Source of the DNA: Myxococcales bacterium
Lineage (GTDB): Bacteria; Myxococcota_A; Polyangia; Polyangiales; Houyiibacteriaceae
Assembly (NCBI GenBank): GCA_029861865.1
Contig: JAOTYL010000011.1
Coordinates: 84,517-148,516 of the forward strand
DNA: 64,000 nt
Direction: 5' to 3'
This document shows positions 1 through 24,847 of this stretch, in pieces. Every line of letters starts with the position of its first letter. The stretch's first letter is position 1. Under the pieces are notes generated by a model, which did not search any database, was not told the origin of the DNA, and was given only the letters and a program-made list of their open reading frames with translations. The position numbers were made by a program, and so were the translations under genes.

Positions 1-1314
1 GGCCGTGGTCCATACCGCCGTCTTGGAAATCCCTGGCGCCGACGCGCCGATTGATTTTGCGTACTGCCTGAAAGTCTGAGGGGACGGGTCAGGCGCCTCG
101 CTTTTCGAAAAGGTGTTCAGTATAAACTTTTCCTGTCGCGCACTGTTCCAATTGTCATAGTAATGTGCGCCTACACCGCCCGACGCGCCCAACGCCGCAA
201 GCGACAGCGTGAGTGCACCTGCCAGACGCCAGGACATGAAACGCCCCACGATGAAGAATGAGTACACGCTGAAAACGCCGAGCGTGAACAACAGCACCAT
301 GACATAGCCGAGGGGCAGTCCCGCGCCGTCAAGTATCGCTGCCACCACGACGTCGAAAGCGATCGGAACCGGCAGAAAGATTCCCAGACAGGCAACGGCG
401 ATCATCGCCAACCACATGCGCATCCCCAAACCCGGTGGCAGCAATTCCGCAAGTTTCTCCCACGGCAGCACATTGACCACCAGTGCACCCAGAAACCCGG
501 CCAGCAACATCAGAGGAACGGTGTAGCGAGCAATGAACCAAAGATTTCTGCCGTAGGTCTTTACCAGCCATTTCCCGGCCTCCAACCAGGAAGATGGTGC
601 AACCGGATCGACCTCCTCCAACACCGTGGGCAGCTTGATCATGCCGTGTACTTTTCCGACTCCCTCCCCGAATCGTCCCTCGTCAACGGGGACGTAACGG
701 GTGATCAGAGGGATCAGCACGATCAAGGCCACGAAGGTCATGACAATTTTCGCGATCGCAAGATGCAGCGGGAACAGCGAAAAAAGCATCGTCAGTACGA
801 CGAAGTTCAGCGTTGGGCTACTGATCATGGCAGCGAGAGCGGTTTCGACGGTCGCGCCGGCTGAGCTCAGTCCACAGGCGATCGGCGCCGCACAGTTCAC
901 GCAGACTCCCAGCGGCGCACCAAGCACGGTGCCAGCCAGGCTGTTGCTCAGGCGTCCTCCGAAGTTGAAACTCCTGAACAATGATATGAATGTCATGAGG
1001 GCTGCGGCTATCAACACACCAAACGTCATCCCCTGCTTGTTGGTGTTCACCCAGTTGACGGTGCTGTACAACACCTTCAGCAGGAACGGAGCATCAGCTT
1101 GCTTTGGCACCAGCGCACCAAAGCTCAAACCGTCTTCGAGCAGCGCGGTATCTCCCATGACCGCTTTCTCATTCAACGCAGGCACCCTGCTTCCTATCCA
1201 GAAATTCAAGGCGATAACCAGGCACAATCCCAGTGCGAGAATCGCTCGCTTGTCTTTAAGCAGATCGCCCACGTGGTAATGGCACAATATAGAAGGTTTT
1301 GACGGGAGGAACAC
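1..1314 (-). CDS. Predicted polytopic permease (DUF318/ArsP-like, CxxC-containing); 3' end runs off the window
   Basis: Minus-strand frame (codon low coordinate = 1 mod 3) stays open from about 1314 to position 1. That explains why it is missing from the ORF track. My translation reads ...ALMTFISLFRSFNFGGRLSNSLAGTVLGAPLGVCVNCAAPIACGLSSAGATVETALAAMISSPTLNFVVLTMLF..., followed by several more hydrophobic helices. The start is unresolved (GTG at 1314 or TTG at 1287). Confidence 0.6.
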   Translation of the reverse strand, partial: MFLPSKPSILCHYHVGDLLKDKRAILALGLCLVIALNFWIGSRVPALNEKAVMGDTALLEDGLSFGALVPKQADAPFLLKVLYSTVNWVNTNKQGMTFGVLIAAALMTFISLFRSFNFGGRLSNSLAGTVLGAPLGVCVNCAAPIACGLSSAGATVETALAAMISSPTLNFVVLTMLFSLFPLHLAIAKIVMTFVALIVLIPLITRYVPVDEGRFGEGVGKVHGMIKLPTVLEEVDPVAPSSWLEAGKWLVKTYGRNLWFIARYTVPLMLLAGFLGALVVNVLPWEKLAELLPPGLGMRMWLAMIAVACLGIFLPVPIAFDVVVAAILDGAGLPLGYVMVLLFTLGVFSVYSFFIVGRFMSWRLAGALTLSLAALGASGGVGAHYYDNWNSARQEKFILNTFSKSEAPDPSPQTFRQYAKSIGASAPGISKTAVWTTA

Positions 1315-1345
1315 ACGAACGTTAGAGCAACCCTGCCCTCTACCG

Positions 1346-2101
1346 CTAGACTGGATGGGCCTGTTGGACGTACTCCAGCGCCTGGCCCACCGGGAGAACT
1401 CGGCAGTTCGACCGCACTGCCGTGCGAACGGCGAACTCGAGCAATTGCGGTGTGCATCCGAACGCGTTCGGGTGCGGAATGACCGAATGGCTATAGAAAA
1501 CGAGCCACCCGGCGTCTCGTTCCGCGCGCTCGATGAGGCTAGCGACTTTGCGCTCCGTCAGTTTCCACGAATATAGTGGCACCGCTTTGACGAGTGATCT
1601 GTCGACGGTCCGAGTGTTGATACCGCCAAGAACTCCACGGCAAGAAGCGAACAACTCCGCACAGGCGCGCTTCACGCGCGTGTTCAAGCACCCGTATGGA
1701 TAGGCAAAGCTCTGAAGCGGCCTCTCGAGCCCGAGCTCGGAAAAGAACTGTCTGTTCTTCTCGAGATCTGCCCTCACCTCGTCGATCGAAATCTGTTGGT
1801 AGTTGAGATGACCGTAGCCGTGCGATCCGAGCTCGTGCTCACCACCCATGAGAGACCGCAAATCATCCCAGTCGTGGAAGGGTTCGCCGCCGTCGACCAG
1901 CTTTTGCGTGAAACCGCCGCTGATGTAATAGGTACCTGCGACGTCGAGGCTTTCCAGGATGCCGCGACCTTTTCGGCAGCCACTTTGGGGAACGTCATCG
2001 AAGGAGAAGGAGACGACGCCTGTCGGGTTCGACATGCGAATTCGGCTGGCCGCCGCCACTCTAGCCACGCGGCGCTCGAATCTCTGCCGCAGGGTTCTCA
2101 C
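1346..2101 (-). CDS. Polysaccharide deacetylase (NodB-homology / CE4)
   Basis: 251-aa ORF with a GTG start. It carries the CE4 motifs SFSFDDVP (Asp-Asp) and GSHGYGH (His-x3-His). It lies 31 nt upstream of the permease on the same strand. Confidence 0.8.
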   Translation of the reverse strand: MRTLRQRFERRVARVAAASRIRMSNPTGVVSFSFDDVPQSGCRKGRGILESLDVAGTYYISGGFTQKLVDGGEPFHDWDDLRSLMGGEHELGSHGYGHLNYQQISIDEVRADLEKNRQFFSELGLERPLQSFAYPYGCLNTRVKRACAELFASCRGVLGGINTRTVDRSLVKAVPLYSWKLTERKVASLIERAERDAGWLVFYSHSVIPHPNAFGCTPQLLEFAVRTAVRSNCRVLPVGQALEYVQQAHPV

Positions 2102-2241
2102 TTCGAGGTGTCTAGCAACTCGAAAGAAGCGACGCCACGTGGACTCTTCGCGCTACGGTTTACGGACGAGTCGTCGACGCGGAACAATTAGCTTGGCCGG
2201 GTGGGCTTACGGTCTGCTAAATCAATTACGATCGGGCACCG

Positions 2242-3459
2242 ATGAAGGTTGCATACTTCACAAATTACTATCCGGCCGTTAGCCACACCTTCATCCGAAG
2301 AGAAATCGCAGGACTCGAGGCAAAGGGCGCCGAAATTCATCGCTTCTCCGTTCGCCGATACCCTGGGGAATTAGTCGATCCGGACGACATTGCGGAAGCG
2401 AAGCGCACCACCGTCATTCTTGACGACGGGACACTTGCACTTGTGCAGACGGCGCTTGGCGTCGCGATTGGCAGGCCGGTTCGCTTCGGGAAAGCGCTGC
2501 TGGCGTCGATACGGATGGGGCTGCGCTCAGATCGGGGCCTGCTTCGAAACCTCGCTTACCTCTTGATTGCGTGCAGGCTCCTGTTGCTTCTCACACGAAG
2601 CGGATGTCGTCACCTGCACGTCCACTTCGGCACCAACCCCACCGCCGTCGCATATCTATGTGGTATTCTTGGCGGGCCTCCATACAGTTTCACCGTCCAC
2701 GGACCTGATGAGTTCGACAGGCCGTGGGCGCTCAGCCTCACGGAGAAAATCGAGGGCGCCGCGTTCGTCGTCGCGATCAGCAGCTTCGGAAGAAGTCAGC
2801 TCTATCGACAATGCAGCCTGGAGCATTGGCCCAAAATCAAGATCGTGCGATGCGGCGTCGACCAGGGATTCATCGATGCGAATACGCCACCGATCGCAGA
2901 CCGCCCTCGCTTGGTTTGTGTGGGAAGGCTGTGCGCGCAGAAGGGTCAGCTGCTCCTCGTCCAGGCCACTGCCAGACTCCGCGACGCAGGCGTTACCCTC
3001 GAGCTCATCCTCGTCGGCGACGGCGAGATGCGACCTGAGGTCGAGGCACTGGTTCGAGAGCACCGGCTCGAAGACGTCGTCAAGATAACCGGTTGGGCAT
3101 CGGGCGACGAAGTCCGGAACTACCTGTCGTCCTCGCGTGCATTGGTCTTGCCGAGCTTCGCCGAGGGTCTGCCGGTGGTCATCATGGAGGCGCTCGCCCT
3201 CGGACGACCGGTTCTCACGACCTACGTTGCGGGGATCCCCGAGCTCGTAGAACCGAATCGTTGTGGGTGGCTTGTTCCCGCGGGGTCGGTCGACGTGCTC
3301 GCTGACGCGATGAGGGAGGTGCTGACGACTCCGGTCTCACGGCTCACCGAGCTCGGCCAGGAAGGACGTCGCAGGGTTCTTGCACTCCACGACCCGCGCA
3401 CGGCGACCAGACTGCTCTTTGAAGAGCTGAAAAGAAGCTTGGAGTCGAGCGCGCTATGA
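2242..3459 (+). CDS. Glycosyltransferase family 4 (GT-B, retaining)
   Basis: 405-aa ORF. The C-terminal EGLPVVIMEALALGRPVLTTYVAGIPELVE contains the E-x7-E signature. A 4-nt ATGA overlap joins it to the next gene. Confidence 0.8.
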   Translation: MKVAYFTNYYPAVSHTFIRREIAGLEAKGAEIHRFSVRRYPGELVDPDDIAEAKRTTVILDDGTLALVQTALGVAIGRPVRFGKALLASIRMGLRSDRGLLRNLAYLLIACRLLLLLTRSGCRHLHVHFGTNPTAVAYLCGILGGPPYSFTVHGPDEFDRPWALSLTEKIEGAAFVVAISSFGRSQLYRQCSLEHWPKIKIVRCGVDQGFIDANTPPIADRPRLVCVGRLCAQKGQLLLVQATARLRDAGVTLELILVGDGEMRPEVEALVREHRLEDVVKITGWASGDEVRNYLSSSRALVLPSFAEGLPVVIMEALALGRPVLTTYVAGIPELVEPNRCGWLVPAGSVDVLADAMREVLTTPVSRLTELGQEGRRRVLALHDPRTATRLLFEELKRSLESSAL

Positions 3460-4640
3460 CCGTCAACGCCCTGGGCACAATCGTTGCCATTGCTGCGGTC
3501 GTCCTCCTCATTCCTTCGCTGACTGTCTTTGTCGAGTGCGTCGCAAGCGTGTTTGTGACTAGCGGGCGGTGCATCGCACGGCCGAGCGGAGTTTCCGCAG
3601 CCGTTCTGATCCCGGCCCACGATGAGGAGAACATCGTCGGCGTCACGGTCGAGTCTGTTCGCCAACAGCTAATTGCTTCGGATCGCATCTTGGTCGTCGC
3701 GGACAACTGCCAGGATGGCACTGCGCGAGTCGCATCCGGGGCCGGAGCGGAAGCCGTCGAGCGCCGCGACCCCGACAAGCGCGGGAAAGGTTACGCGCTT
3801 GCGTTCGGCCTGGAGCACCTCGCGACCGACCCGCGCGACGTGCTGATCGTCGTCGATGCGGACTGCTCGCTCACGCCTGGTTCGGTCGACGCGTTGGTCG
3901 AAGGCGCGACGCGTCTTGGACGGCCCGTACAAGCGGACAACGTATCCCAGGCCACCGATCCCTCTGTTGTCGGCAGGATTTCGACCTTTGCAATGCTGAT
4001 CCGCAACCGCGTGCGCCCTCGGGGTCTGCTCAGGCTTGGGTTGCCATGCCACCTCATGGGCACCGGGATGGCATTTCCATGGGATGTGATTCACACGGCG
4101 CCGCGAGTCGGCGCAGAGCTCGCGGAGGACCTCGTGATGGGCATTGAGCTCGCCATGCGCGGCTACGAGCCGGCACTGTGCATTCAAGCAAGCGTTCGAA
4201 GCGAGCTTCCGTCCGAACCGAGCGCCGCTCTTCAGCAACGAGGCCGTTGGGAACGCGGCCACGTCGACACGTTGCTCCAGCACGGCCCCCGCCTCGTCTG
4301 GGCAGGAATAGCAAGGCGTCGACCCTCACTCGTATTCGCAGGGGCCGATCTGATGGTGCCGCCACTCGCGATGCTCGTCGGTTCGCTGAGCTTCCTGCTC
4401 ACCATCGCAGCCGTCGTGTTCGCGTTCGGAGGTCCCATCAATCCCCTCGCGCTTTCCGGAGCTTCGCTCGCTCTGGTCGTTCTCGGCGTGATGATAGGTT
4501 GGGCCCGCTACGGCCGCAAAGTCCTCCCCTTTCGATACCTGCTTCTTGCGCCACTCTATATGCTCTGGAAGATGCCTCTCTATTTGTCGTTTGTCACCGG
4601 AGGACGCGAGAGGGACTGGAAGCGTACACCACGAAACTGA
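3456..4640 (+). CDS. Membrane glycosyltransferase family 2, processive beta-glycan synthase type (NodC/PgaC-like architecture)
   Basis: 394 aa with an N-terminal TM helix. Motifs seen: AVLIPAHDEE, VVDADC (DxD) and QQRGRWERG (QxxRW). The C-terminus has 3-4 TM helices (LMVPPLAMLVGSLSFLLTIAAVVFAF..., LALVVLGVMIGW...). Confidence 0.8.
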   Translation: MTVNALGTIVAIAAVVLLIPSLTVFVECVASVFVTSGRCIARPSGVSAAVLIPAHDEENIVGVTVESVRQQLIASDRILVVADNCQDGTARVASGAGAEAVERRDPDKRGKGYALAFGLEHLATDPRDVLIVVDADCSLTPGSVDALVEGATRLGRPVQADNVSQATDPSVVGRISTFAMLIRNRVRPRGLLRLGLPCHLMGTGMAFPWDVIHTAPRVGAELAEDLVMGIELAMRGYEPALCIQASVRSELPSEPSAALQQRGRWERGHVDTLLQHGPRLVWAGIARRRPSLVFAGADLMVPPLAMLVGSLSFLLTIAAVVFAFGGPINPLALSGASLALVVLGVMIGWARYGRKVLPFRYLLLAPLYMLWKMPLYLSFVTGGRERDWKRTPRN

Positions 4641-4647
4641 GGTCGGA

Positions 4648-5418
4648 TTAGGAAGCCGCGACAAAGTCCACCGCCTCCGCGATCAACGCTTGATCCCGAA
4701 GCAAGGACCGGTGCCCGAGCCCCGAAGTCGTGATCAGACGGGAGCCACTCCAGGCCCGCGCTGTTTCCACGGAGTCTGTATATGGTATCTCGGTATCCCT
4801 GGGGTCGTGGAACAGCAGCGCGGGGATGTCGAGTTGCGGCGCGATTTCGTCCAACGCGGAGTCAAGCCACACCCTGGGGCCGAACAACTCGTCCATGCGA
4901 GCCACGAGCTCGTCCTCTACGGCATCGCCGAGATTCCTACGCGCGACAAACCTGTGCAGGGCTTCTCGCAGCTTGCAGATGGGACACAACAGCACGATTC
5001 GATCGACGACCACCCCACGGCTGACGGCCATCGCTGCGCTGGCAGCGCCCATCGAGTGCGCAATGATCGCATGGACCGGCGCCAAGCGTTGCGCAGCAGT
5101 CTCTACCACCTCGGAGAACTCGAACAAGTTCGAAAGATCCCCGGCGCTTCGGCCGTGCGCCGGCGCGTCCACTGCGACGGCCCGGAAACCGGCCTCGACA
5201 AGCGGCTGAACGAAGGAGCTGAAATGCGACGCGCGGCTGCCCCACCCGTGCATCAGCAAGACCGTTGGGCCGCTGCCCCAAGCGTACGCGGAGAGCGGCA
5301 GGTCTCCATGAGTGATCGTGAATTGCTCCGCCGTGCTCAGAAACCGCTGCTCACGAACGCTTTCCTGACTCCTGGGGGGCGGAGTGAACCATTGGCGCCA
5401 CGCCTCTTCGACAGACAC
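4648..5418 (-). CDS. Alpha/beta hydrolase
   Basis: The ORF is open to 5640, but its first 74 codons are Arg/Gly-rich and overlap the desaturase gene. I propose GTG 5418 as the start. Motifs seen: VLLMHGWGS (HG oxyanion motif) and IIAHSMGA (GxSxG nucleophile elbow). Confidence 0.7.
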   Translation of the reverse strand: MSVEEAWRQWFTPPPRSQESVREQRFLSTAEQFTITHGDLPLSAYAWGSGPTVLLMHGWGSRASHFSSFVQPLVEAGFRAVAVDAPAHGRSAGDLSNLFEFSEVVETAAQRLAPVHAIIAHSMGAASAAMAVSRGVVVDRIVLLCPICKLREALHRFVARRNLGDAVEDELVARMDELFGPRVWLDSALDEIAPQLDIPALLFHDPRDTEIPYTDSVETARAWSGSRLITTSGLGHRSLLRDQALIAEAVDFVAAS

Positions 5419-5498
5419 GCCGCTCGAGCCACCGGCCGGCGTGGCGACCGACCTTGGAACGGCTGAGCCCCTGCCCTTCTTTGGGGAGGCGGGTCGGC

Positions 5499-6488
5499 TC
5501 ACGTGGTGCGTCCCTCGGCGCGAGAGGGTTGGGCGAGCTTGGCAGCGATCTCCTCGGCGCTGGGCTCTCGCACCTTCCACGCCAAACCGAAGGTCTTCAT
5601 GAGCGTGATGAACCCGCCCGCAACGTCGACCTCCCACCACTTCAATCCGAGGTAGGCCGATCGGGGAAAGGCGTGGTGATTGTTCTGTAAGGACGAGCCG
5701 AAAGAGGGTAGCGCGAGCCAGAGGTTATTGGCGCTGTAGTCCCCGGTGTCGAAGGGGCTGGCGCCAAAGCGGTGCGCAAACGACGCAACGCTCCAGGTCG
5801 TGTGGTGGACGAGAAACATCCGTACCATTCCCCCCCAGAGGAAACCGCTCAGCGCGCCTACCCAGGTCCCGGTCGCTACCCAACCGATGACCGTCGGAAT
5901 AACGAGACCCGCCACGACAATCATGCCGTACATGTCGTTGATCTTCCTCAGTGCCGGGTCTTTGTTGATGTCCCTCGCGAACAGCGTGCAGTTCGTCACA
6001 TCGCCCATCAGCATGTGACCGATGTGGGCATGCCACAGTCCTACCATCGGCCCGAGCTTCTGCGGTTTCCCCTCCTTGTGGCGAACGCGGGGAGAGTGTG
6101 GATCGTCGCCAGTGTCGCTGTGGGCATGGTGCCGGCGGTGATCCGCAACCCAGTGCAGCAAGCGACCTTCGGCCGCCATCGACCCCAGGACCGCGAGGAG
6201 GTTCCGCATCCACCGATGCGTTTGGAAGGCCCTGTGTGCAAGGCTGCGATGAAGCCCGACCTCGATTCCGAAGGTCGTCAGCGCGAAGCCCCCGACCATG
6301 AGGCCGATCTCGAGCGCCCCGAAGCCTGTTACTGGGATCAACGCAACTGCCGCCACCGTGCCCAGAAAGGGCGCCCAGACGGTCGCCAGCGCGATTCTTC
6401 TGTGGCGCGGTCGAAGTGCCGCATCGCGTATTACGAGAGGCGGGCGTTTGCGTACGTCCGCCGACCGACTTTGGTTCGTCTCAGGCAT
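5499..6488 (-). CDS. Membrane fatty acid desaturase (acyl-CoA/acyl-lipid desaturase family), paralog 1
   Basis: Three His boxes: HRSLAHRAF, HRRHHAHSD, QNNHHAFP. TM helices lie upstream of box 1. The ATG at 6488 (MPETNQ) overlaps the upstream gene's stop by 8 nt; the ORF track extends to 6536. Confidence 0.85.
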   Translation of the reverse strand: MPETNQSRSADVRKRPPLVIRDAALRPRHRRIALATVWAPFLGTVAAVALIPVTGFGALEIGLMVGGFALTTFGIEVGLHRSLAHRAFQTHRWMRNLLAVLGSMAAEGRLLHWVADHRRHHAHSDTGDDPHSPRVRHKEGKPQKLGPMVGLWHAHIGHMLMGDVTNCTLFARDINKDPALRKINDMYGMIVVAGLVIPTVIGWVATGTWVGALSGFLWGGMVRMFLVHHTTWSVASFAHRFGASPFDTGDYSANNLWLALPSFGSSLQNNHHAFPRSAYLGLKWWEVDVAGGFITLMKTFGLAWKVREPSAEEIAAKLAQPSRAEGRTT

Positions 6489-7458
6489 GTTGAACCCTCT
6501 TGCGTCTGCTTTCGATCTGTTCTTTTGAGGGCACATTCACGTTCCAGGCCAGCCCGAGCCACCGGAACAGTCTGATGAACGCCATGCCGACGTCGGGTTG
6601 ATACCACCGGAATCCGAGCAGTGCTGAGCGCGGGAAGGCGTGGTGATTGTTCTGGTAGGCCGACCCGAAGGTGGGAACGGCGAACACCGGGTTGTTCGTG
6701 CTGAAGTCTTTGTTGTCGTAGGGCTGGCCCCCATACATGTGACTGAATGAACCGTTCGCGTAGTAAATGTGGTGGACGACAAACATCCTCACGAATCCGC
6801 CCCACAGTAGACCGCTCAGCGCTCCGAGCCAGGTTCCCGAGATCACACCACCGAGCACGGTTGGAATCAGGAGTCCGACGACGATCCAGAACCTGTAGGA
6901 ACGGTTGATCCTGGAGATCATGGGATCCCGGATCATGTCTCTCGCGAAAAGCGTACAGTTCGTGGGGAGTCCCTCGTACATGTTGCCGACTTGCGCGTAC
7001 CACAGGCCCTTCGATCGGCCCATCCTCTCGCCTCCCTTCTTGCCGATGCGGTAGTGCGGCGAGTGGGGATCCTCGGGCGTGTCGCTATGAACGTGGTGGC
7101 GTCTGTGCGTGGCCACCCAATAGACGGGACCGCCCTGGGCCGCCATGCAGCCGGCGACGGCGAGAAAGTAACGAAGCCAGGGCTTCGACTCGAAAGCTTT
7201 GTGGGACAGCTGCCGGTGGAAGCTGACCTCGACGCCCGCCATCGTGAGCACGTACATCCCGATCAGGAGACCGATCTCGAGAGCTCCGATTCCCCAGATG
7301 AAGGCGGTCGCGATGGCGATCACGGTGCCGATCGTCGGAACCCAAAGCGTGATCAAACCGAGCCGCCTCTTTGCGGCCATGACCGGCTCCGACTCGATGA
7401 TCGGTGAGGGCTTCTTCCGTGCTGCCGCGGGCGCCGCTTGGGTTGCAGAATTCGTCAC
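6481..7458 (-). CDS. Membrane fatty acid desaturase, paralog 2
   Basis: His boxes HRQLSHKAF, HRRHHVHSD, QNNHHAFP. It aligns along its whole length with paralog 1 (shared TNCTLFARD...DP...IN, LIPTV.GG/W blocks). Its start overlaps the ACP stop (ATGA). Confidence 0.85.
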   Translation of the reverse strand: MTNSATQAAPAAARKKPSPIIESEPVMAAKRRLGLITLWVPTIGTVIAIATAFIWGIGALEIGLLIGMYVLTMAGVEVSFHRQLSHKAFESKPWLRYFLAVAGCMAAQGGPVYWVATHRRHHVHSDTPEDPHSPHYRIGKKGGERMGRSKGLWYAQVGNMYEGLPTNCTLFARDMIRDPMISRINRSYRFWIVVGLLIPTVLGGVISGTWLGALSGLLWGGFVRMFVVHHIYYANGSFSHMYGGQPYDNKDFSTNNPVFAVPTFGSAYQNNHHAFPRSALLGFRWYQPDVGMAFIRLFRWLGLAWNVNVPSKEQIESRRKRVQHA

Positions 7459-7715
7459 CGTGCCTCTTCGCGGAGATGCTCGACGAGGTGCGCCGCCAAC
7501 GCGTCCACCGTGGTGAACTCGGAGGCCAGCGCCGCATCCAGCTTGATGCCCAACCAGTCGCCGAGATCCCCGCTCATGCCGGCCGCGGCGGTGGAATCGA
7601 GGCCGTATGCCTCAAACGACGTTGCGGTGTCGATCTCCTTCGGATCCATGCCCAACAGGTCGCCGAGATACAACACCATCCAATCTCGAATCTCTTCCGC
7701 CGTCGGTGTAGCCAT
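7455..7715 (-). CDS. Acyl carrier protein (stand-alone)
   Basis: MATPTAEEIRDW...FEAYGLDSTAAAGMSGDL, which contains the phosphopantetheine attachment motif GLDS. The ATG at 7715 lies 4 nt after the FAAL stop. The track ORF (to 7847) adds an implausible N-terminal extension that overlaps FAAL. Confidence 0.8.
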   Translation of the reverse strand: MATPTAEEIRDWMVLYLGDLLGMDPKEIDTATSFEAYGLDSTAAAGMSGDLGDWLGIKLDAALASEFTTVDALAAHLVEHLREEAR

Positions 7716-7719
7716 CGTT

Positions 7720-9558
7720 TCAACTCTCTCCAGGCGTCTGCACTCGGTGACTTGCGTGTCTGGCTCCAGCGCGCTGACGATCGACCACCCCGGTTGACTG
7801 GATCTCGGGGTAGACCATCGGAAGCGTCCCGTTGAGGTATTGCTCACACGACGCCCTGCGACGGACTTTGCCGCTCGATGTCTTCGGAAGCGTGCCGGGG
7901 TGGATCAGCACCAGGTCGTGGACCCGAAGACCGTGCTGTCGCACAACTGCCGCGCGCACGGCCAGCGACAGCGCCTCAGCCGCCTGTGATCCCTCGCTCG
8001 CGAGAGCCGCGGCGCCCTTGCGGTCGATTTCCTGGATCACGACCAGCCTATCGTCTTCTCCGTTCGCCTCGAGGGCCACCGCGGCCCCACACCCCGGTCG
8101 AAGAAATGGGTGACTGAGACCGACGGTCCATTCGATGTCCTGCGGGTAGTGATTGCGGCCGCGGATGATGATCAGGTCCTTGAGCCGCCCGGTTACGAAT
8201 AGCTGGCCATCTCGCACAAACCCGAGGTCTCCCGTCCGCAGGAACGGTCCTTCTCCAGTGTCCGCCAGGTGTGCATGGAAGGTCGCTTCGGACAGCCCGG
8301 GTTGATTCTCGTATCCCTGGGCCACGCTTTTCCCTGAGATCCAGATCTCACCGATCTCGTCCGGCTCACAAGCGACCGACGTTGCCGGGTTGACCGCGAT
8401 CACCTTCAGGCCCTTCCATGGTCGGCCGCAACCGACGAGGCGCCGACAGCCACTCGGATCGTCACCAGCCTCGGCTACACGTCGCCTGTTGAGGGCCATA
8501 CCGTCGAACGTCGAAGTGACCGGAGGTGCGTCCGAGAGGCCACCTGTTACGAATAGGGTGGCCTCGGCCAGCCCGTAACAGGGGTAGAAAGCCGCCTCTC
8601 GAAAGCCGTAGGGCCGGAAAGCCTGTGCGAAGCGCTCCATGGTTTCGGGTCGGATCGGCTCCGCGCCGTTGTAGGCGACCTTCCAACTGCCGAGGTCCAG
8701 ACCTTCCCGCCGTTCCTCGGGAACCCGCTTGACGCAAAGCTCGTAGGCGAAATTCGGTGCGCCGCTCGTCGTGCCACCGTAGCGTGAGATCGCTCGAAGC
8801 CAGCGTACGGGCTTCTGTGCAAAGGCTTCCGGTGCCATGAGGGTGCATGGGATGCCGAGATAAAGCGGTTGGAGCACATTGCCGATCAGCCCCATGTCAT
8901 GGTGCAGGGGGAGCCATCCGACGAACACGGTCTCGTCACTATGGCCGAAGGCCTCGGCGATCATACTCTGATTCTCGAGAAGGTTGCCGTGGGTGGCCGC
9001 CACGCCCTTGGGCGATCCGGTCGAGCCCGACGTGTACTGCAGCAACGCCAGGGTCTCGCCGGAGACGTCGGGCTCCTGCCACCGCTCGGCGAGAGCCGAG
9101 GGGAGAGAGTCGGTTGAGAAACATCGAAGCGTGCCCAGCACGGAATCCTCGCGGCAACGAATGTGGGCGTCTTCCAGCAGGGTCTCGGTCGTGAGCACCA
9201 TGGTCGCCTGCGAGTCCAATGCGATCCGATGGAGTTTGGACAATCCCTGGTTGCGGCGCGGTGCGCTGACGGGAACAGGAGTGACCCCGCCATAGAGACA
9301 GCCCACGAACGCCGAGATGAAGTCGAGCCCCGACCCGTAGAGCAGCAGAGCGCGACCGCCTGACAGGCCCGAGGCCTGCAACTGCGCGGCGATCGTGCGC
9401 GCTTCGAGATCGAGCTGCGAGAAGGTCAGAGTGCGGTCCTCAACCTCTCCGTCCCTCAACCAGCGATACGCAAGCTCTGGCCCGCGAACGCTGGCATGGT
9501 GGCGACAGAGTTCTACCAACGTCTGAAACGGCGCCGCCGGGTCCGCCTCTCGGCTCAC
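7720..9558 (-). CDS. Fatty acyl-AMP ligase (FAAL, FadD32-like adenylating enzyme)
   Basis: AMP-binding core LLQYTSGSTGSPKGVAATHGNLL, plus later YGLAE and TGDLGF blocks. About 610 aa and followed directly by an ACP, which is the typical FAAL arrangement. GTG 9558 is preceded by AAGGAG with a 7-nt spacer. Confidence 0.8.
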   Translation of the reverse strand: MSREADPAAPFQTLVELCRHHASVRGPELAYRWLRDGEVEDRTLTFSQLDLEARTIAAQLQASGLSGGRALLLYGSGLDFISAFVGCLYGGVTPVPVSAPRRNQGLSKLHRIALDSQATMVLTTETLLEDAHIRCREDSVLGTLRCFSTDSLPSALAERWQEPDVSGETLALLQYTSGSTGSPKGVAATHGNLLENQSMIAEAFGHSDETVFVGWLPLHHDMGLIGNVLQPLYLGIPCTLMAPEAFAQKPVRWLRAISRYGGTTSGAPNFAYELCVKRVPEERREGLDLGSWKVAYNGAEPIRPETMERFAQAFRPYGFREAAFYPCYGLAEATLFVTGGLSDAPPVTSTFDGMALNRRRVAEAGDDPSGCRRLVGCGRPWKGLKVIAVNPATSVACEPDEIGEIWISGKSVAQGYENQPGLSEATFHAHLADTGEGPFLRTGDLGFVRDGQLFVTGRLKDLIIIRGRNHYPQDIEWTVGLSHPFLRPGCGAAVALEANGEDDRLVVIQEIDRKGAAALASEGSQAAEALSLAVRAAVVRQHGLRVHDLVLIHPGTLPKTSSGKVRRRASCEQYLNGTLPMVYPEIQSTGVVDRQRAGARHASHRVQTPGES

Positions 9559-9565
9559 GCCAGTT

Positions 9566-9571
9566 CTCCTT
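9566..9571 (-). promoter_or_regulatory. Shine-Dalgarno (AAGGAG) for the FAAL gene
   Basis: The minus strand reads GAAAAGAAGGAGAACTGGCGTG, i.e. AAGGAG, 7 nt, then GTG at 9558. Confidence 0.5.
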
Positions 9572-9730
9572 CTTTTCGACAAATGCGACCCAAAAAAAGT
9601 GTCCCCGATGATACGGTCCAATCCAGACAGGCACAAGAGGTTTGTCGGCTTCTGCCAAGGCAAGCAGCCGCCCTGACGACACTGCGCCCGGATCATTCGG
9701 TTGTGTGTGTGTTAGCTTTTCACACGCGTC

Positions 9731-10873
9731 ATGACGGAGTCGAAAGAAGCGGTCTTGCGGATCGCGAACCTGAGCGATGGGCAACGGGTGACCCTTCTGC
9801 TGAAGAGCCTGGGACTCAAGATCGCTACCGAACCGGAAGCCGTCCGTCGTCGTTGGGAAGGACTCTGGAAGAACAACCCCGCGCTCGCGATGGATCGGCC
9901 GTCGCCGCCGCTGGGGTGGGTGCTCGAGGCGGACGAGGAGATCGTTGGGTTCTTCGGCAGTATTCCCATTCGGTACCGGTTTGGGGATCGTGAGCTTCTC
10001 GTCGGCGTCGGTACGGCCTGGGCGGTCCTGAAGCCCTTCCGAAGACAAACAGGCGAGCTCTCGGGGGCCTACTTCGATCAGACCGAGGTCGATCTGCTCA
10101 TGGGAACCACTGGGATCCCTGCCAGCGGCCGCATTTACTTGAGCAACTCCGGCTCGGCCTTGCCGCACCCTGACTGGGATCGAGTGCCCCACTGGGTTCT
10201 CGACGAGACGGCATTCATGCGTGCGGCCCTGCGTAAGGGCAAGGTTCCCTCGGGAGTCGCGAGCGTCGGGGCGGCCGTGCTGTCGCCGTTCCTGAGTGCC
10301 GCTGTTGCCGTGGGCCGTCGTCGACCGGGCCGGCTACACGCCGGAATCGAACCGGAGTCGATCGCGATCGAAAACGTGGGCGATGAGTTCGACGATCTGT
10401 GGAGACGCAAGCTTGCCGAAGGTCATCGGCTCTACGCCGGTCGCGCCTCGGAGGACATCCGGTGGCACTTCGAACCGCGAGATGGCGCGCGCGCGGTCAC
10501 GATGCTGTGCGGCCGCAGAGACGGGCGCCTCGAAGGCTATCTCGTCTGGGAGCGAAAGGAGAACTATCTCATCAGTGGACTGACCGGCGCGAGAATCGTC
10601 GACATGTTGGTGGCGTCGAATGACGAACGTGTCATCGATGCTCTCGTGGCGGCCGCCTACGAGTCCGCGCGCGAACAAGGCTGCCACGTTCTCGAAATGA
10701 AGGGCTTCCCCCGCGAGATTCGCTCGCAGGTGGAGGGGAGCCGAGTCTTTTCCAAAAAGCTCACCCCGAACTCTTTCTGCTTCAGGGCGCAGTCCAGCGA
10801 GCTGCACTCGGCACTACAGCATGAGGACACGTGGTACCCCACCCTCTACGACGGCGACGGCAGTCTCGATTGA
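9731..10873 (+). CDS. GNAT / FemAB-fold acyltransferase-like protein (two-lobed, about 380 aa)
   Basis: Size and pattern resemble BioF2-like/CelD-type GNAT proteins: N-lobe ...WVLEADEEIVGFFGSIPIRYRF...VGVGTAWAVLKPFRRQ, and C-lobe ...DGRLEGYLVWERKE...RIVDMLVASNDERVIDALVAAAYESAREQGCHVLEMKGF. This is recognition by eye only. It is divergent from the FAAL operon. Confidence 0.45.
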   Translation: MTESKEAVLRIANLSDGQRVTLLLKSLGLKIATEPEAVRRRWEGLWKNNPALAMDRPSPPLGWVLEADEEIVGFFGSIPIRYRFGDRELLVGVGTAWAVLKPFRRQTGELSGAYFDQTEVDLLMGTTGIPASGRIYLSNSGSALPHPDWDRVPHWVLDETAFMRAALRKGKVPSGVASVGAAVLSPFLSAAVAVGRRRPGRLHAGIEPESIAIENVGDEFDDLWRRKLAEGHRLYAGRASEDIRWHFEPRDGARAVTMLCGRRDGRLEGYLVWERKENYLISGLTGARIVDMLVASNDERVIDALVAAAYESAREQGCHVLEMKGFPREIRSQVEGSRVFSKKLTPNSFCFRAQSSELHSALQHEDTWYPTLYDGDGSLD

Positions 10874-11678: not shown

Positions 11679-14600
11679 CTACACCTTGATCTGGATGCCC
11701 AGCGTCTCGCGCAGTCTGAAATAGCTCTCGGAGATGCTGTATAGGACGATCTCTTTGACCTTGTCCCGCGGTGGAAGATCGGCGGTCGACTCGGACGCGA
11801 TTTGCTGCGTCATCCGCACGGCGGTGTCGACGTCGTCGCACAGAAGCAGGCCGGCCCGAAGCGAGGTGATCTCCGTCGCCTGCATCCAACGCTTGATGTC
11901 TGCCTTGCCTCCGGCTTCCAAGAACTTTCGCACGACCTTTTTGAGGACGTCCAGGTGAGCCTGATTGATGTGGCGTGCCAGCTGCTTGGCGGTCGAGTCC
12001 ACGGCTGGGTCGGCCTCGCCCATGCCGACGACACGCATCGCTGCCAAGAGGAGCGTACGAAGCTCGGTATGCGATTTGTACATCGTCCGAATGAAGTGCT
12101 CCCCGCGGTAGTAGGAGAGGTGTCGGCCGCACACGAAGGCGAGGTCGACTGGACGGTACCCCGACAGAAGCGTGTACCCGGTGATGATGGCTGGCGGGTT
12201 GCTTCGCGCCTCGTCTCGAAGCGCGCCCGAGAGCTCTTTCTGAATGAAGAGGCGAACTGGGATAGTGATGTTCAAGACGTCCTGCGCGAGCTTGAACTGC
12301 CGTGCGAGCGCGAGGCTCGGGTTGGCGAGATCTTCGGGCTTACGCTTGTGCAGGTTGAGCTTCTTGTCCGTCCAGGCCATCGACGCGCGCACCGCCGGAG
12401 CGATGACCTCCATGATCTTGGAGATGTAGATATCCTGGTCCGGGTGCATGAGATCTTTGACCCACGCCTCGTTGCTGACTCGCGCCCTCGGCTGGATCTC
12501 TCGGTCCTGCCGGTACTGCTGGAAGAACTTCTGCTGCTCCTCGTCCGCTTTGGCAAAATAGGTCAGCGTTCGCGCGATACACCATGCCTTGTCGTACGCG
12601 CGTGCATCGAAGTAGAGCTTGTAGAGCGCTCGATACGACTCGAGTCGATTCGGGTCGTGCCCAAGCAACCATTGGTGCTCCGCGATAGCCTCCGTCGTCT
12701 TGTCCGGCATCGTCGCGTAGAGCTCGGCGAGAATCTGGTGCTCGGTGGCGTCGTCCGGCTTGAGCGCCGCCGCCATCCTGAAGGACTCGGCTGCCGCGTC
12801 GAAATTGCGCTGACGGTCCCTGTAGATGATGCCGAGTGTATGCCAGAGGTTGTGCTCGAGGTCGGTATTGCCTTGGTTGATGATGCGGTGAAGCATCTTG
12901 CGGTAGGCGCGCTCGAGCGCCTTCCAGTCCTTACGACCATTCAGAAGCTTGTTGACCGCCTCGAAGGGCTTGAGCTGCGTGCTGTCGAGGTCGAGTGCCT
13001 CGTTGAACTTCTCGAGCGCAGCATCCTCGTCCTCGAGCTTGTCGCGAAGGATGACGCCCACGGTATATGCGTACTTGGCCTTGGCCTCATCACGCGCCTC
13101 GAGAGAGCTGACGCGCTCGATGACATCGATCGCCTCGGACCAACGCTGGGCAGCCTGGTATGTGCCGAGCAACTTGTGAAGCACCACGTGGTTATCGGGG
13201 TCGAGGTCGAGCGACTCCGTGAAGGCCTCTGCTGCCGCGTCTGGTGAGCCGAGCTTGTCCTGCCAAAGGTCGCCGAGCTCTACGAGCAGTTTGGCGCGGG
13301 CGGTGGGTTCATCGGTGACATCCAGAATGCGCTTCTTGTACTCGACCACCGACTCCCAATCGCTTTCGCGAGCTTGAAGGTCGACCATCGCCTCGAGTGC
13401 AGGCACGTAGTGCGTGTCCTCTTCGAGAGCCTTGTCGAACATGTTGCGCGCCTTCTTGTCCTCGCCCTGCTCACGCTTGATGACGCCAAGCCGGTATAAG
13501 ATCTCGGTGATCTCGTCCCTGCCGAGGGAATCGCGGTGTTGGACCAACAGCACTTGGTGGTATTTGAACGCGTCTTCCCATCGCTCCGCACGGAAGTAGC
13601 TTCCAGCAAGGCCCTTGATCGTCGCCGTGCCATCGGCATCGAGAGCGTGCGCGCGTTCATAGGCCGCCACCGCGGCGTCCGCGCGACCGAGGTTCGTCGC
13701 CGTCTCGCCCAACAAGGAAGCCAGGCGGTGCTGCTCGTCTCGTTCGCGCTTATCCGAACGCTTGACGAGCACCTCGAGAAGCGGGAACGCCTCTTCGTAG
13801 CGACCCTGGGCCACATAAAAGTCGACCAACGGGAGAAGCGCGTCCTCGTTGTCCGGGTCGAAGGCATGTGCCGACTCGAAGGCATCGACGGCTCCGGCCT
13901 CGTCGTCGAGGCGCTCGGCGCGAATACAGCCGAGGTCTACCAATCGCGCCGCTTTGACGCGCTCGTTGTCGGTCTGCTCGACCTCCAGGCCGAGCGTCTT
14001 CGTCGCGGCGATCCAGTCGCCCGAGTCGATGTGGATGCGCCGCATGGCTTCGAGCGACGGCAGGTCCCCCGGATCCAAATCGACCGCGCCCTGGAAGTGC
14101 TCGAGCGCCGACGCGCGGTCCCCGAGCTCCTGGTCGAGGATGCGACCCATTCGGTGCTTGAGAGACACTTGCTCGTCGACCTCGTCCACGACGCGAACCA
14201 ACTGGCCCATCATGTCGAGCGCCGCCGAATGGTCACCCTTGCGCTCATAGAGCTTCGTGAGCGCCTGGAGGCTGAGAATGTCTTGGTCGTCGAGGTTCAG
14301 GGCGTTGAGATAGCTGTCGATCGCTTGCTCGGCGTCGCCCTTGTGCGCGCCATACACCTGCCCGAGCGCGCGGAAGATCTCAATCCGTCGTTCTTGGTCC
14401 ACCGTCGCACTCGCGTGGCGGTCATAGGTCCGCACCAGGTCGTCCCACCGCTGCGTCAACCGATAGAGGTCTTCGAGCTTGCAGAGGGCTTCGTCGTGCA
14501 GCGGGTCGATATCGAGCACCTGTTCGAGGCGCTCGACGGCGTTCTCGGGCTTGCGAAACTCCTCTTCCCACATGCGGGCCAGACGAACCAGGATGTCGAT

Positions 14601-22825: not shown

Positions 22826-24847
22826 TCACTGGCCTGCGGCGTCGAGAAGGAACGGATAGTTCACGACCACCACACCACCCCCGTCGGGGGCCGGGAAGGT
22901 CCACCTGCGAACCGCGCGCACGATGCAGCTCTCGACCGCCTCGTTGCGGAGGCTCGAGCTCGCCACCATCGCAGACTGGACGGAGCCGGTCGGCGAGATC
23001 ACGAATCGCGTCGTGACCCGGCCCTGAAGGTCGGGGCGTGAGTTGAGCTGCTGCTCGTAACAGAACTTCACCTCATTGATGTGGCGTCGGACCACGCGTC
23101 GAATGACTTCCTTCGAGAGCGAGCCGCGAACCTCTGCGCCGCCACTGCGTACCTGGGGAACACCGGCCGATCGCCCGCGGAACCCGCCCGCGCCCCGGCC
23201 ATAGCCACCCTCGCCTGCACCTCGGCCGCCGCCTCGGCCTATCGTGCCGAAGTTGCCCATGCCGATCGTGCCTTGGCCCAGGCCGCCACCACCTCGCCCA
23301 GTGCCTCTGAGACCGAGGCCGCCGAACCCGAAGTTCTGACCGATGTCGTCGCCCGTCATGGCGCCAAGCGCGCTCATCGGATCATTGCCGAGGGCAAAGT
23401 CGGCACCGTACGGCGATGTCGGAGCGTTGAATGAACCCTGCATGGCTGCCAGCGTCCCGATGATTCCAGCCGTCCTCGCTTCTTGCTCAGCTTGCTCGCG
23501 CGCCATCTGTGGGTCTGGGTTGTCCTCCGGTCCCTGGATGCCGTACTTGTTGCGGTTCTTTTCGGCCTTTTCGTCGCCCATCTGGCCCTGCTCGCCCTCG
23601 TGGGCCTTGCCTGTGCCGCCACCGGACGAATCCGCACCGTTGAGCCACTCGGGCTCTGGCTCTTCGAGCTCCTCAGGCTCCATCAAGAACTGGATCAGAC
23701 GCGAATCGGTGCTGAGCAGATCGGAAGACAGGCCGCGGGGGCGCGGAGGCTGGAAGTAGAACATCGTCAACACAAGGCTCGCGAAGAGCGCTGCGCCAGC
23801 GACGTAGATCATCGGGCGGACGTCGATCTTGGCGTGGCCCGCAACCTTCTTGCCGGCCTTCACGTCTTTGACGATGAACGTGAAGTCGCGGTGCGTCATT
23901 CGAACCGCGCCGCCTTCGGGCACCGGGAATTCCGTCGCACCCGCCATCGCGCTGCTTGGGCGAAGCTCGCCTTGCCCCCGCATCAGGTCGAAGGAACGCG
24001 TCTGCTCACCGATTGTCGCTTCGCCCTTTGCACCTTCTGGAATGATCGCAGTGACGCCTTCGCCCTGTGCAAGACAAAGCGGCATCCGGTCGACTCCGAT
24101 CGCATCGTGGCCGAGTATGAAGTCGACTTTTTCGCCATTGGGCTCGCCGACGTAGTAATCGCGCGCAGGCTTCAGGTAGTCGACGTTGAGGACGCTCTTG
24201 TCCCCCCAGAGCACCGACACCTCGATCGCGCGTTCATTGGTCTCGATCTCGTGCGAAGGCACGGCGCCGGTGGTCGCGATAAGGCGGTACTCATCCCCGT
24301 CTTCACCGACCGTATTGGCAAACGGCGTACGCGAGAGCCGCTTGGCCCCTACCTCGAACGGGTTGAACTTGGGGCCGGAGTCATCCTCTTCCTCTTGGAC
24401 CACGGCTTTTTGTCGCGGCTCAGACTCCTCATCGACCATTGCGGTCATCGCATGCTCGTCGACGACCGGCGTCTGCCGCTCAGCACCCACCGCCATGGCG
24501 ACAGGTGGGCTCGAGGCCATGGCCACTTTGCCCGTGATGATGTCGACGTGGATCCGCTTGTTGCCGATCTGAATGATGTCGCCGGTCTGGAGCTTGCGCT
24601 TGTTGACCTTGTCGCCGTTGACGAGAGTCCCCGAAGCGGAACCGAGGTCGATGATGTACACCTCCCCTGGCGCAGCGACCTCGATGACTGCGTGCATTCG
24701 GCTGACCTTGTCGTCCTCGAGACGAACGTCGCTCGTCTGCAGCCGACCGATCTTGATGATCTCTTGACTCAGCGTTTCAGTGCCAAGCAGCTCGTCCCCG
24801 TCATAGACGGAGAAAGCGACCGAAGTATTGTGACTCGAATCACTCAC
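22826..24847 (-). CDS. FHA-domain / single-TM / Gly-rich / AgmX-PglI-type TonB-like C-terminal domain protein (GltG/PglI- or NfsG-like)
   Basis: N-terminal FHA (IKIGRLQTSDVRLEDDKVSRMHAVIE...IIDLGSASGTLVNGDKV). TM helix MIYVAGAALFASLVLTMFYF. A Gly/Arg-rich linker follows. The C-terminus is GSLSKEVIRRVVRRHINEVKFCYEQQL...VVVNYPFLL, as in the AgmX/PglI C-terminal domain. Confidence 0.8.
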   Translation of the reverse strand: MSDSSHNTSVAFSVYDGDELLGTETLSQEIIKIGRLQTSDVRLEDDKVSRMHAVIEVAAPGEVYIIDLGSASGTLVNGDKVNKRKLQTGDIIQIGNKRIHVDIITGKVAMASSPPVAMAVGAERQTPVVDEHAMTAMVDEESEPRQKAVVQEEEDDSGPKFNPFEVGAKRLSRTPFANTVGEDGDEYRLIATTGAVPSHEIETNERAIEVSVLWGDKSVLNVDYLKPARDYYVGEPNGEKVDFILGHDAIGVDRMPLCLAQGEGVTAIIPEGAKGEATIGEQTRSFDLMRGQGELRPSSAMAGATEFPVPEGGAVRMTHRDFTFIVKDVKAGKKVAGHAKIDVRPMIYVAGAALFASLVLTMFYFQPPRPRGLSSDLLSTDSRLIQFLMEPEELEEPEPEWLNGADSSGGGTGKAHEGEQGQMGDEKAEKNRNKYGIQGPEDNPDPQMAREQAEQEARTAGIIGTLAAMQGSFNAPTSPYGADFALGNDPMSALGAMTGDDIGQNFGFGGLGLRGTGRGGGGLGQGTIGMGNFGTIGRGGGRGAGEGGYGRGAGGFRGRSAGVPQVRSGGAEVRGSLSKEVIRRVVRRHINEVKFCYEQQLNSRPDLQGRVTTRFVISPTGSVQSAMVASSSLRNEAVESCIVRAVRRWTFPAPDGGGVVVVNYPFLLDAAGQ

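Follow-up and report, generated by a model that had tools for sequence, protein, structure and literature searches.

Thiotemplated fatty-acid desaturation cassettes work by an experimentally established mechanism, in which a ligase attaches a fatty acid to an acyl carrier protein (ACP), the bound chain is modified by desaturases, and a thioesterase then sets it free (PMC9828172, PMC8341276, PMC8406139). In TtuABC of Teredinibacter turnerae and JamABC of Moorea producens, a ligase of the fatty acyl-AMP ligase (FAAL) type charges a dedicated ACP with a fatty acid, and the resulting acyl-ACP is the substrate of a membrane desaturase/acetylenase; TtuB is the characterized decanoyl-ACP acetylenase of T. 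turnerae (PMC8341276). Another described system, the HfsH/HfsK pair of the Caulobacter holdfast, consists of a cytoplasmic carbohydrate esterase family 4 (CE4) deacetylase and a tandem GNAT protein of ~370 aa, which is proposed to acylate the amines exposed by the deacetylase (PMC5362036). We analyzed a 64,000-nt stretch of DNA from a metagenome-assembled Myxococcales bacterium (assembly GCA_029861865.1, contig JAOTYL010000011.1, positions 84,517 to 148,516 of the forward strand; hereafter, the window), the first 11 kb of which carry a FAAL/ACP/desaturase operon, a divergent gene for a 380-aa protein, and a group of glycan genes. Our preferred reading, to which we give a probability of roughly 55%, is that these 11 kb are two units adjoining only in this genome: an alkyne-type cassette with its putative acyltransferase (4648–10873), and an independent envelope-glycan unit (1–4640). 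As judged from sequence, the conserved unit is a TtuABC/JamABC-type cassette that is usually paired with an unannotated double-GNAT gene.

Gene content was taken from a six-frame listing of open reading frames (ORFs) and from Pfam and NCBIfam profile searches of the window proteins. All of the gene classes, motifs, and junctions described in an earlier note on this DNA were found in the window. Five genes make up the lipid arm, contiguous on the minus strand with overlaps or gaps of only a few bases: the FAAL gene (7720–9558; listed ORF to 9696), encoding AMP-binding and AMP-dom_DIP2-like C-terminal domains; a dedicated ACP (7455–7715; PP-binding, 47 bits) with its serine in an LDS motif; two paralogous membrane desaturases, Des1 (6481–7458) and Des2 (5499–6488), both matching Pfam FA_desaturase; and a 284-aa alpha/beta-hydrolase (4648–5502; Abhydrolase_6 and Hydrolase_4), a putative cassette thioesterase whose GTG start overlaps the Des2 stop. 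The operon ends, as the earlier note had stated, 7 nt from the stop of a convergent glycosyltransferase family 2 (GT2) gene. On the plus strand, across a divergent intergenic region of 172 nt (9559–9730), lies the gene for the 380-aa protein (9731–10873), a putative N-acyltransferase with two predicted GNAT domains and a predicted cytoplasmic location.

A homology search with Des2 found 51% identity to TtuB over 305 aa, and Des1 is 45% identical to the same enzyme. In a neighbor-joining tree, Des2 was placed inside the TtuB clade and Des1 as sister to the TtuB/Des2 clade. The third histidine box of both proteins reads QNNHH instead of HxxHH, with glutamine replacing the first histidine. This variant, noted in the window and in L005, L007, L076, L081, L088, and L090, is common to Des1, Des2, TtuB, one polyyne desaturase of Streptomyces sp. 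Mg1, a Chitinivorax homolog, and a homolog from a Myxococcota metagenome-assembled genome (MAG); the additional desaturases that accompany them retain HNNHH. QNNHH may be a marker of the acetylenase lineage. When plasmids were searched by tblastn, the closest annotated relatives of Des1 belonged to FAAL-desaturase-desaturase-ACP cassettes carried by plasmids of Burkholderia gladioli and Polaromonas, and another was in a textbook polyyne cassette on plasmid pSMg1-1 of Streptomyces sp. Mg1; Des1 is 37–47% identical to the desaturases of such cassettes on Burkholderia, Polaromonas, and Streptomyces plasmids. Similarly, the FAAL is 38% identical to TtuA and 38–45% to the cassette FAALs, with FAAL models as its best NCBIfam matches, and the ACP is 32–49% identical to the Ttu, Polaromonas, B. 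gladioli, and Mg1 cassette ACPs (32% to TtuC). The hydrolase is 50–82% identical across the related loci L005, L007, L075, and L076.

These similarities identify the lipid arm as a cassette of the TtuABC/JamABC/polyyne type, already a known kind; this had been missed in the earlier note, which knew of no characterized system of such composition. The operon contains the co-located FAAL, fatty-acid desaturase, and ACP by which alkyne cassettes are defined (PMC8406139), and both desaturases are homologous to a characterized acetylenase. The likeness to Ttu extends to gene order. The ttu locus, which also has a second desaturase (PMC8341276), is arranged FAAL-Des-ACP-TtuB, and relatives of the window keep this FAAL-Des-ACP-Des order: in L076, L081, and L079, a third desaturase (HNNHH) lies between FAAL and ACP, followed, where the contig reaches, by Des1, Des2, and the hydrolase. 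Unlike TtuABC and JamABC, the window has tandem TtuB-like paralogs, a thioesterase homolog, and, as in most lineages, a divergent tandem-GNAT gene, and there is no polyketide synthase or nonribosomal peptide synthetase downstream in the window. A 60% identical Des2 homolog was also observed in a minimal FAAL-ACP-desaturase cassette (L091, 6195–11065), which is preceded by a gene for an AurF-like di-iron oxygenase.

Polyyne cassettes (cay, pgn, cepacin, collimonin, and that of Mg1 pSMg1-1) share with the window the FAAL, the ACP, several desaturases, and the alpha/beta-hydrolase thioesterase (PMC8406139, PMC9828172). The Mg1 cassette is ordered FAAL-Des-Des-ACP-Des-alpha/beta-hydrolase-rubredoxin-P450, and the window proteins are identical to its products at 38% (FAAL), 37–39% (desaturases), 42% (ACP), and 35% (hydrolase, E 1e-29). 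The polyyne-type thioesterase is thus represented in the window by a homolog. However, polyyne cassettes have three desaturases and the window has two; the third desaturase of L076, L081, and L079 is of the HNNHH Ttu type, and in none of them is it of the distinct 367-aa Mg1 DesC type. Because only two desaturases are present and no rubredoxin was found in 64 kb, we ruled out a canonical polyyne cassette.

The 380-aa protein matched no Pfam or NCBIfam model above threshold, and neither the protein nor its profile gave a significant match to PDB sequences. Nineteen of 37 family members showed a sub-threshold Acetyltransf_1 signal, and none of the 37 matched Acetyltransf_6, the Pfam family to which HfsK belongs. 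An AlphaFold model built with 37 homologs (predicted local distance difference test, pLDDT, 91; predicted template modeling score, pTM, 0.90) contains two GNAT domains, and its best Foldseek matches were N-myristoyltransferases, Eis, and 3N7Z. The GNAT nature of the protein is read from this model and these matches. Enzymes of the N-myristoyltransferase/Eis/FemX type likewise have two GNAT domains per chain, and N-myristoyltransferase moves a long acyl group to an amine; by contrast, the matches reach template modeling (TM) scores of 0.5–0.6 at 10–14% identity with no sequence-level match, and the donors of those enzymes are acyl-CoA or aminoacyl-tRNA. Of the previous designation of the protein as GNAT/FemAB-like, the GNAT fold was borne out, as a tandem, and the FemAB part found no NCBIfam match, including to the PEP-CTERM FemAB-like model. 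A relationship to the PEP-CTERM/XrtA set of FemAB-like protein, deacetylase, and ligase was rejected, as none of its models matches the 380-aa protein or the CE4s (window CE4 on pepcterm_polyde, 19 bits versus a cut-off of 276; CE4s found as partners of the family elsewhere, no match).

The C-terminal sequence WYPTxYDGD(T/G)SL (window 10843–10873) is nearly invariant in the family and is followed by only one or two further residues. N-myristoyltransferase uses its C-terminal carboxylate as the catalytic base; by analogy, the tail of the 380-aa protein may be catalytic. An exhaustive profile search recovered 4013 representatives at E≤1e-3, of which 559 also passed E≤1e-30. At 50% identity, the family comprises at least 559 clusters. 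Seven of ten sampled clusters carried names, six as "hypothetical protein" and one as "VCBS repeat-containing protein". From these numbers and names, we conclude that the family is large and unannotated. A word-indexed homology search had suggested a tiny family of 41 proteins, which the exhaustive search exposed as an artifact of the index.

To place the family in context, we clustered the genes of 60 family loci; L078 duplicates L005 and L077 duplicates L081, and neither was counted as an independent lineage. The 380-aa gene is divergent from a FAAL/ACP/desaturase operon in five independent lineages (the window, L005/L078, L006, L007, and L081/L077), and the closest relatives of the window protein, 55–64% identical, are all divergent from a FAAL/ACP/desaturase/desaturase/hydrolase operon. 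The lineages with a FAAL arm form one monophyletic clade, whose sister group (L003 and L004) is paired with CE4 genes in Wzx/Wzy loci. Many other members lie directly downstream of a gene for a 280-aa cytoplasmic CE4 in polysaccharide loci of the Wzx/Wzy type: this partner CE4 is directly upstream in about 23 of the 60 loci and no more than six genes away in 28. In L005, a divergent CE4 of the partner type (220 bits on the hidden Markov model (HMM) of the partner family) lies two genes from the arm. In Acidobacteriota, genes for an ACP and an acyl-CoA-type ligase recurrently come after the 380-aa homolog, and some of these loci also have the CE4.

Further contexts were observed around the family. 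In the Acidobacteriota MAGs (L034, L046, L053, L056, L060, L062–L064, L069, and L070), the genes after the 380-aa homolog encode an 86-aa ACP and a 523-aa ligase, and an AsnB-like amidotransferase, a thiamine diphosphate (ThDP) enzyme, a cytochrome P450, and a short-chain dehydrogenase/reductase (SDR) are often nearby. MetA and MetY, which also occur beside the family in Acidobacteriota, pass their own equivalog/subfamily cut-offs and were therefore set aside as housekeeping neighbors outside any module. The best NCBIfam match of the Acidobacteriota ACP pointed to ornithine-lipid OlsHI, a lead that was dropped: OlsH is GH3-like, not a GNAT, and the ACP score is sub-threshold. In Rhodospirillales MAGs (L019–L051), the CE4 and the 380-aa homolog form a stand-alone pair after hemC/hemD/hemX-hemY-like genes, outside polysaccharide loci. 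In L001/L002 (9148–12655), CTP_transf_like and CDP-OH_P_transf genes come after the pair, and genes for GDSL lipases, a sulfotransferase, and a GH123-like protein are found close by; this gene content suggests a glycan decorated with phospho-alcohols.

The recurring partners of the family, namely a CE4, an ACP with an acyl ligase, and a FAAL/ACP/desaturase cassette, together point to transfer of a carrier-bound acyl group to a freed amine. They support the logic at the core of the earlier note, in which a deacetylase frees an amine and a GNAT-fold enzyme then places on it a special acyl chain from a dedicated ACP; this logic fits the 380-aa family. A literature search for clusters combining FAAL, desaturase, GNAT, and N-acylation retrieved no described system of such composition. 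HfsH/HfsK resembles the family in its CE4 pairing, and HfsH is the best named match of the window CE4. The differences are that the window CE4 falls well short of the HfsH cut-off and its gene does not adjoin the GNAT gene, that the partner CE4 of the 380-aa family belongs to another subfamily, and that no dedicated acyl-ACP supply is described for HfsK. The same chemistry, re-acylation of a deacetylated sugar amine from acyl-ACP, is known from NodB/NodA (with NodC and NodFE) and LpxC/LpxD. There is, however, no orthology to these systems: the NodC, NodB, and PgaC models are not reached, NodA and LpxD have different folds, and the glycan genes of the window are not conserved neighbors.

For the conserved unit, the following sequence of steps can be proposed. 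The FAAL would adenylate a free fatty acid and load it onto the dedicated ACP, and the two TtuB-like, O2-dependent membrane desaturases would unsaturate the ACP-bound chain, possibly introducing a triple bond. The alpha/beta-hydrolase, as a homolog of the polyyne thioesterases, could release the chain. The tandem GNAT protein most likely takes the modified acyl group from the ACP and N-acylates an amine acceptor, which, to judge from the other contexts of the family, would most plausibly be an amino sugar that has lost its N-acetyl group, carried by a glycan or glycolipid intermediate in the cytoplasm. Gene families, homology to TtuB and to other cassette proteins, predicted folds, and neighborhood statistics are what the analysis shows directly; transfer of the acyl group by the GNAT protein, the identity of its acceptor, and formation of an alkyne are steps that we infer. 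The glycan unit, with its HfsH-like CE4, ArsP fusion, and glycosyltransferases, might supply the acceptor. A wider proposal, which we put forward tentatively and consider unlikely as it stands, is that the 380-aa family consists of unrecognized acyl-ACP-dependent N-acyltransferases that re-acylate amino sugars de-N-acetylated by the partner CE4, an independently evolved version of the LpxC/LpxD or NodB/NodA logic; in this Myxococcota clade, a TtuB-type cassette would have been recruited to give a glycan or glycolipid with an acetylenic or polyunsaturated N-acyl chain.

Several observations weigh against a cassette that feeds a dedicated acyltransferase. Identity of 51% to TtuB is no proof of acetylenase activity or of chain-length preference, and a tblastn search with the Mg1 rubredoxin gave no significant match within the 64 kb, leaving the window with no rubredoxin or dedicated electron donor. 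The moderate fold matches of the 380-aa protein (TM 0.5–0.6) leave its donor and acceptor unspecified, and the acyltransferase function of the family is one that we infer from predicted structure and gene context. The divergent arrangement is known from only five independent lineages, all of them on short metagenomic contigs. In L080, the closest relative of the arm (FAAL 84% and ACP 95% identical), the divergent position lacks the 380-aa gene, so cassettes without a GNAT partner can occur; the minimal cassette of L091, with its 60% Des2 homolog and AurF-like gene, also has none. Finally, the cassette has its own thioesterase homolog, and a free acid could therefore be the end product.

This last point leads to the alternative that the cassette by itself yields a specialized metabolite, an unsaturated or acetylenic fatty acid that the thioesterase sets free, the 380-aa protein being merely co-located or co-regulated and having another role, such as glycan acetylation or aminoacylation, or self-protection. 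Polyyne cassettes do release free acids (PMC9828172), the cassettes of L080 and L091 manage without the 380-aa gene, and a FAAL arm is absent beside most members of the 380-aa family. On the other hand, the divergent adjacency has been kept over five lineages whose proteins are only 55–64% identical and which form one clade of the family, and in Acidobacteriota the family is independently and recurrently linked with an ACP and an acyl ligase, an association that points toward donors carried on an ACP. We regard the free-acid alternative as possible but unlikely.

A further alternative, which the earlier note had favored, makes all ten genes one pathway: the GT2, with the glycosyltransferase family 4 (GT4) protein, would build a hexosamine oligomer, the CE4 would free an amine, and the tandem GNAT protein would add the unsaturated acyl chain from the ACP, yielding a Nod-factor-like lipo-oligosaccharide or an N-acyl hexosamine glycolipid. 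Of the ten, the genes outside the cassette unit are the permease part of an ArsP_1 protein (1–1314, minus strand; Pfam ArsP_1, 51 bits), the CE4 (1346–2101, minus strand; Polysacc_deac_1, 61 bits; predicted cytoplasmic), the GT4 (2242–3459, plus strand; Glyco_trans_1_4 and Glycos_transf_1), and the membrane GT2 (3456–4640, plus strand; Pfam GT2 families). The GT4 and GT2 genes overlap in an ATGA, and 31 nt separate the CE4 stop from the start of the permease, whose reported CxxC motif is present as CVNC. The tight packing, with 7 nt between the GT2 and hydrolase stops, speaks for a single pathway, as do the cytoplasmic CE4 in the window and the ties of the 380-aa family to CE4 enzymes and ACPs elsewhere.

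The glycosyltransferases themselves give a mixed answer. The GT2 has a DAD motif at residue 134 and QQRGRW at residue 260, with one N-terminal helix and further C-terminal helices, and its AlphaFold model (pLDDT 89) was matched best in Foldseek by BcsA (TM 0.69–0.72) and hyaluronan synthases. The structural class assigned to it previously, that of a processive membrane synthase with QxxRW, is therefore right, and this fold favors the single pathway; a BcsA/hyaluronan synthase-like predicted fold does not specify the sugar. A hexosamine synthase of the Nod or Pga type is not indicated: no NodC match was found in NCBIfam at E≤0.01, and PgaC_IcaA scored 26 bits against a cut-off of 422. In the PDB, the sequence gave only weak matches to GpgS and BcsA. 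The best NCBIfam match was EpsU (181 bits; cut-off 700), a glycosyltransferase of the Wzx/Wzy-dependent exopolysaccharide (EPS) pathway of M. xanthus (PMC7484181). For the GT4, with its E-x7-E at residue 308, the best match was EpsE (214 bits; cut-off 400).

The CE4 likewise departs from the Nod model. It carries SFSFDD at residue 31 and HGYGH at residue 94 (in the source gene call it starts at 2035 and has 229 aa), and its best NCBIfam match, over the full length, was HfsH (139 bits; cut-off 400). On the NodB model it reached 20.6 bits against a cut-off of 240, so the label "NodB-type" did not hold. On the HMM of the partner CE4s it scored 38 bits, versus 220–399 bits for true members. By these scores, the window CE4 is an HfsH-like general CE4 and does not belong to the subfamily that partners the 380-aa family.

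Gene neighborhoods argue against a single pathway. The GT4-GT2 pair stands beside the arm in this genome only; L082–L084 are the same sequence as the window and are not independent cases. The window GT2 follows the hydrolase gene here, whereas that position is taken by a convergent AMP-binding gene in L075 (Des1 90% and hydrolase 82% identical to those of the window), by DUF3179 and then a CE4 in L005/L078, and by a B12 radical S-adenosylmethionine gene in L007. Conversely, the overlapping GT4-GT2 pair is also present in another Myxococcota contig, L008 (69% and 61% identical), where the arm, CE4, and GNAT genes are not nearby, and in L009 the GT2 belongs to a polysaccharide locus of the ordinary kind. 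At E≤1e-10, the GT2 family numbers more than 7000 homologs, many of them in MAGs of Polyangiales and Myxococcales, whereas the arms amount to a handful. The earlier note had itself named lack of conservation of the lipid and glycan arms as neighbors as the finding that would count against it, and that is what these loci show; nor are synthase, deacetylase, acyltransferase, and acyl supply inherited together as one Nod-factor-like locus.

The permease forms the N-terminal portion of a 1067-aa ArsP/FG-GAP/ASPIC fusion whose gene is cut by the left end of the window. In the source contig (L082, 3502–7859), DUF3179 comes next, and TsaE and CarB also follow. No permease homolog was found in any related locus compared, and the fusion gene is probably outside the conserved unit. 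DUF3179 occurs near the arm in L005/L078 and on the contig of the window, which suggests recurrence and, together with the recurring CE4, would favor one pathway; however, the two DUF3179 proteins are only 29% identical, compared with 50–69% for the arm genes. Taking these points together, we consider a single ten-gene pathway improbable, and on present evidence the glycan genes appear to be bystanders to the cassette and its acyltransferase gene.

That the FAAL/ACP/desaturase operon merely serves housekeeping remodeling of membrane lipids, recycling exogenous fatty acids and desaturating them for fluidity, is highly improbable: the source annotation of the desaturases as delta-9 stearoyl-CoA desaturases and their best NCBIfam match, the DesA family, speak for it, but the DesA score is only 86–98 bits against a cut-off of 400, the closest characterized enzyme is the acetylenase TtuB, a dedicated ACP with FAAL and thioesterase is the Jam/Ttu/polyyne architecture, and the operon is patchily distributed with synteny broken at both ends.

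Researchers look to terminal-alkyne and polyyne cassettes for genetically encoded click handles and for antifungals, and the variant from an uncultured myxococcote, with two tandem TtuB-like desaturases and a thioesterase and no polyketide synthase or nonribosomal peptide synthetase, widens their known range. What the large, unannotated tandem-GNAT family does is the more interesting lead. For these "hypothetical proteins", the contexts described above offer a testable function, in which a freed amine is N-acylated with a carrier-bound acyl chain; if confirmed, this would explain a common and unnoticed modification of polysaccharides or glycolipids in Rhodospirillales, Acidobacteriota, Gemmatimonadota, and Myxococcota.

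We also examined the start of the FAAL gene and the divergent intergenic region. The listed ORF extends 46 codons upstream to ATG 9696, and in an alignment with the close relative L080 this extension is out of frame. GTG 9558 is preceded by AAGGAG and coincides with the L080 start, and the homolog lengths of 589–606 aa agree with it; the FAAL call of the source has 658 aa. The true start is most likely GTG 9558, and not ATG 9696. In pairwise alignment (L080 1–540 versus window 9480–9800), the intergenic sequence 9559–9730 is conserved, and similarity stops exactly where the 380-aa gene begins, at its first codon; by this comparison, the start codon is a clean rearrangement breakpoint between the two loci. 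A scan of the region found no sigma-70 consensus promoter. Upstream in L080, there is a perfect hairpin, AAAGAAGAAAGCCCGC...GCGGGCTTTCTTCTTTC, that resembles a bidirectional terminator.

Beyond the 3′ end of the 380-aa gene at 10873, the window continues with a gene for a small secreted protein, a 3351-aa tetratricopeptide repeat (TPR) protein, and further TPR and forkhead-associated (FHA) genes. The stretch at 11679–31712, on the minus strand, contains the 3351-aa protein, which consists almost entirely of TPR repeats, followed on the same strand by four further TPR proteins (289, 428, 1205, and 560 aa); an FHA/TonB_C protein is encoded within it at 22826–24847, also on the minus strand. Past these genes lie housekeeping genes, for example, those for an SRP54-family GTPase (FtsY-like), UvrA, and PdxA.

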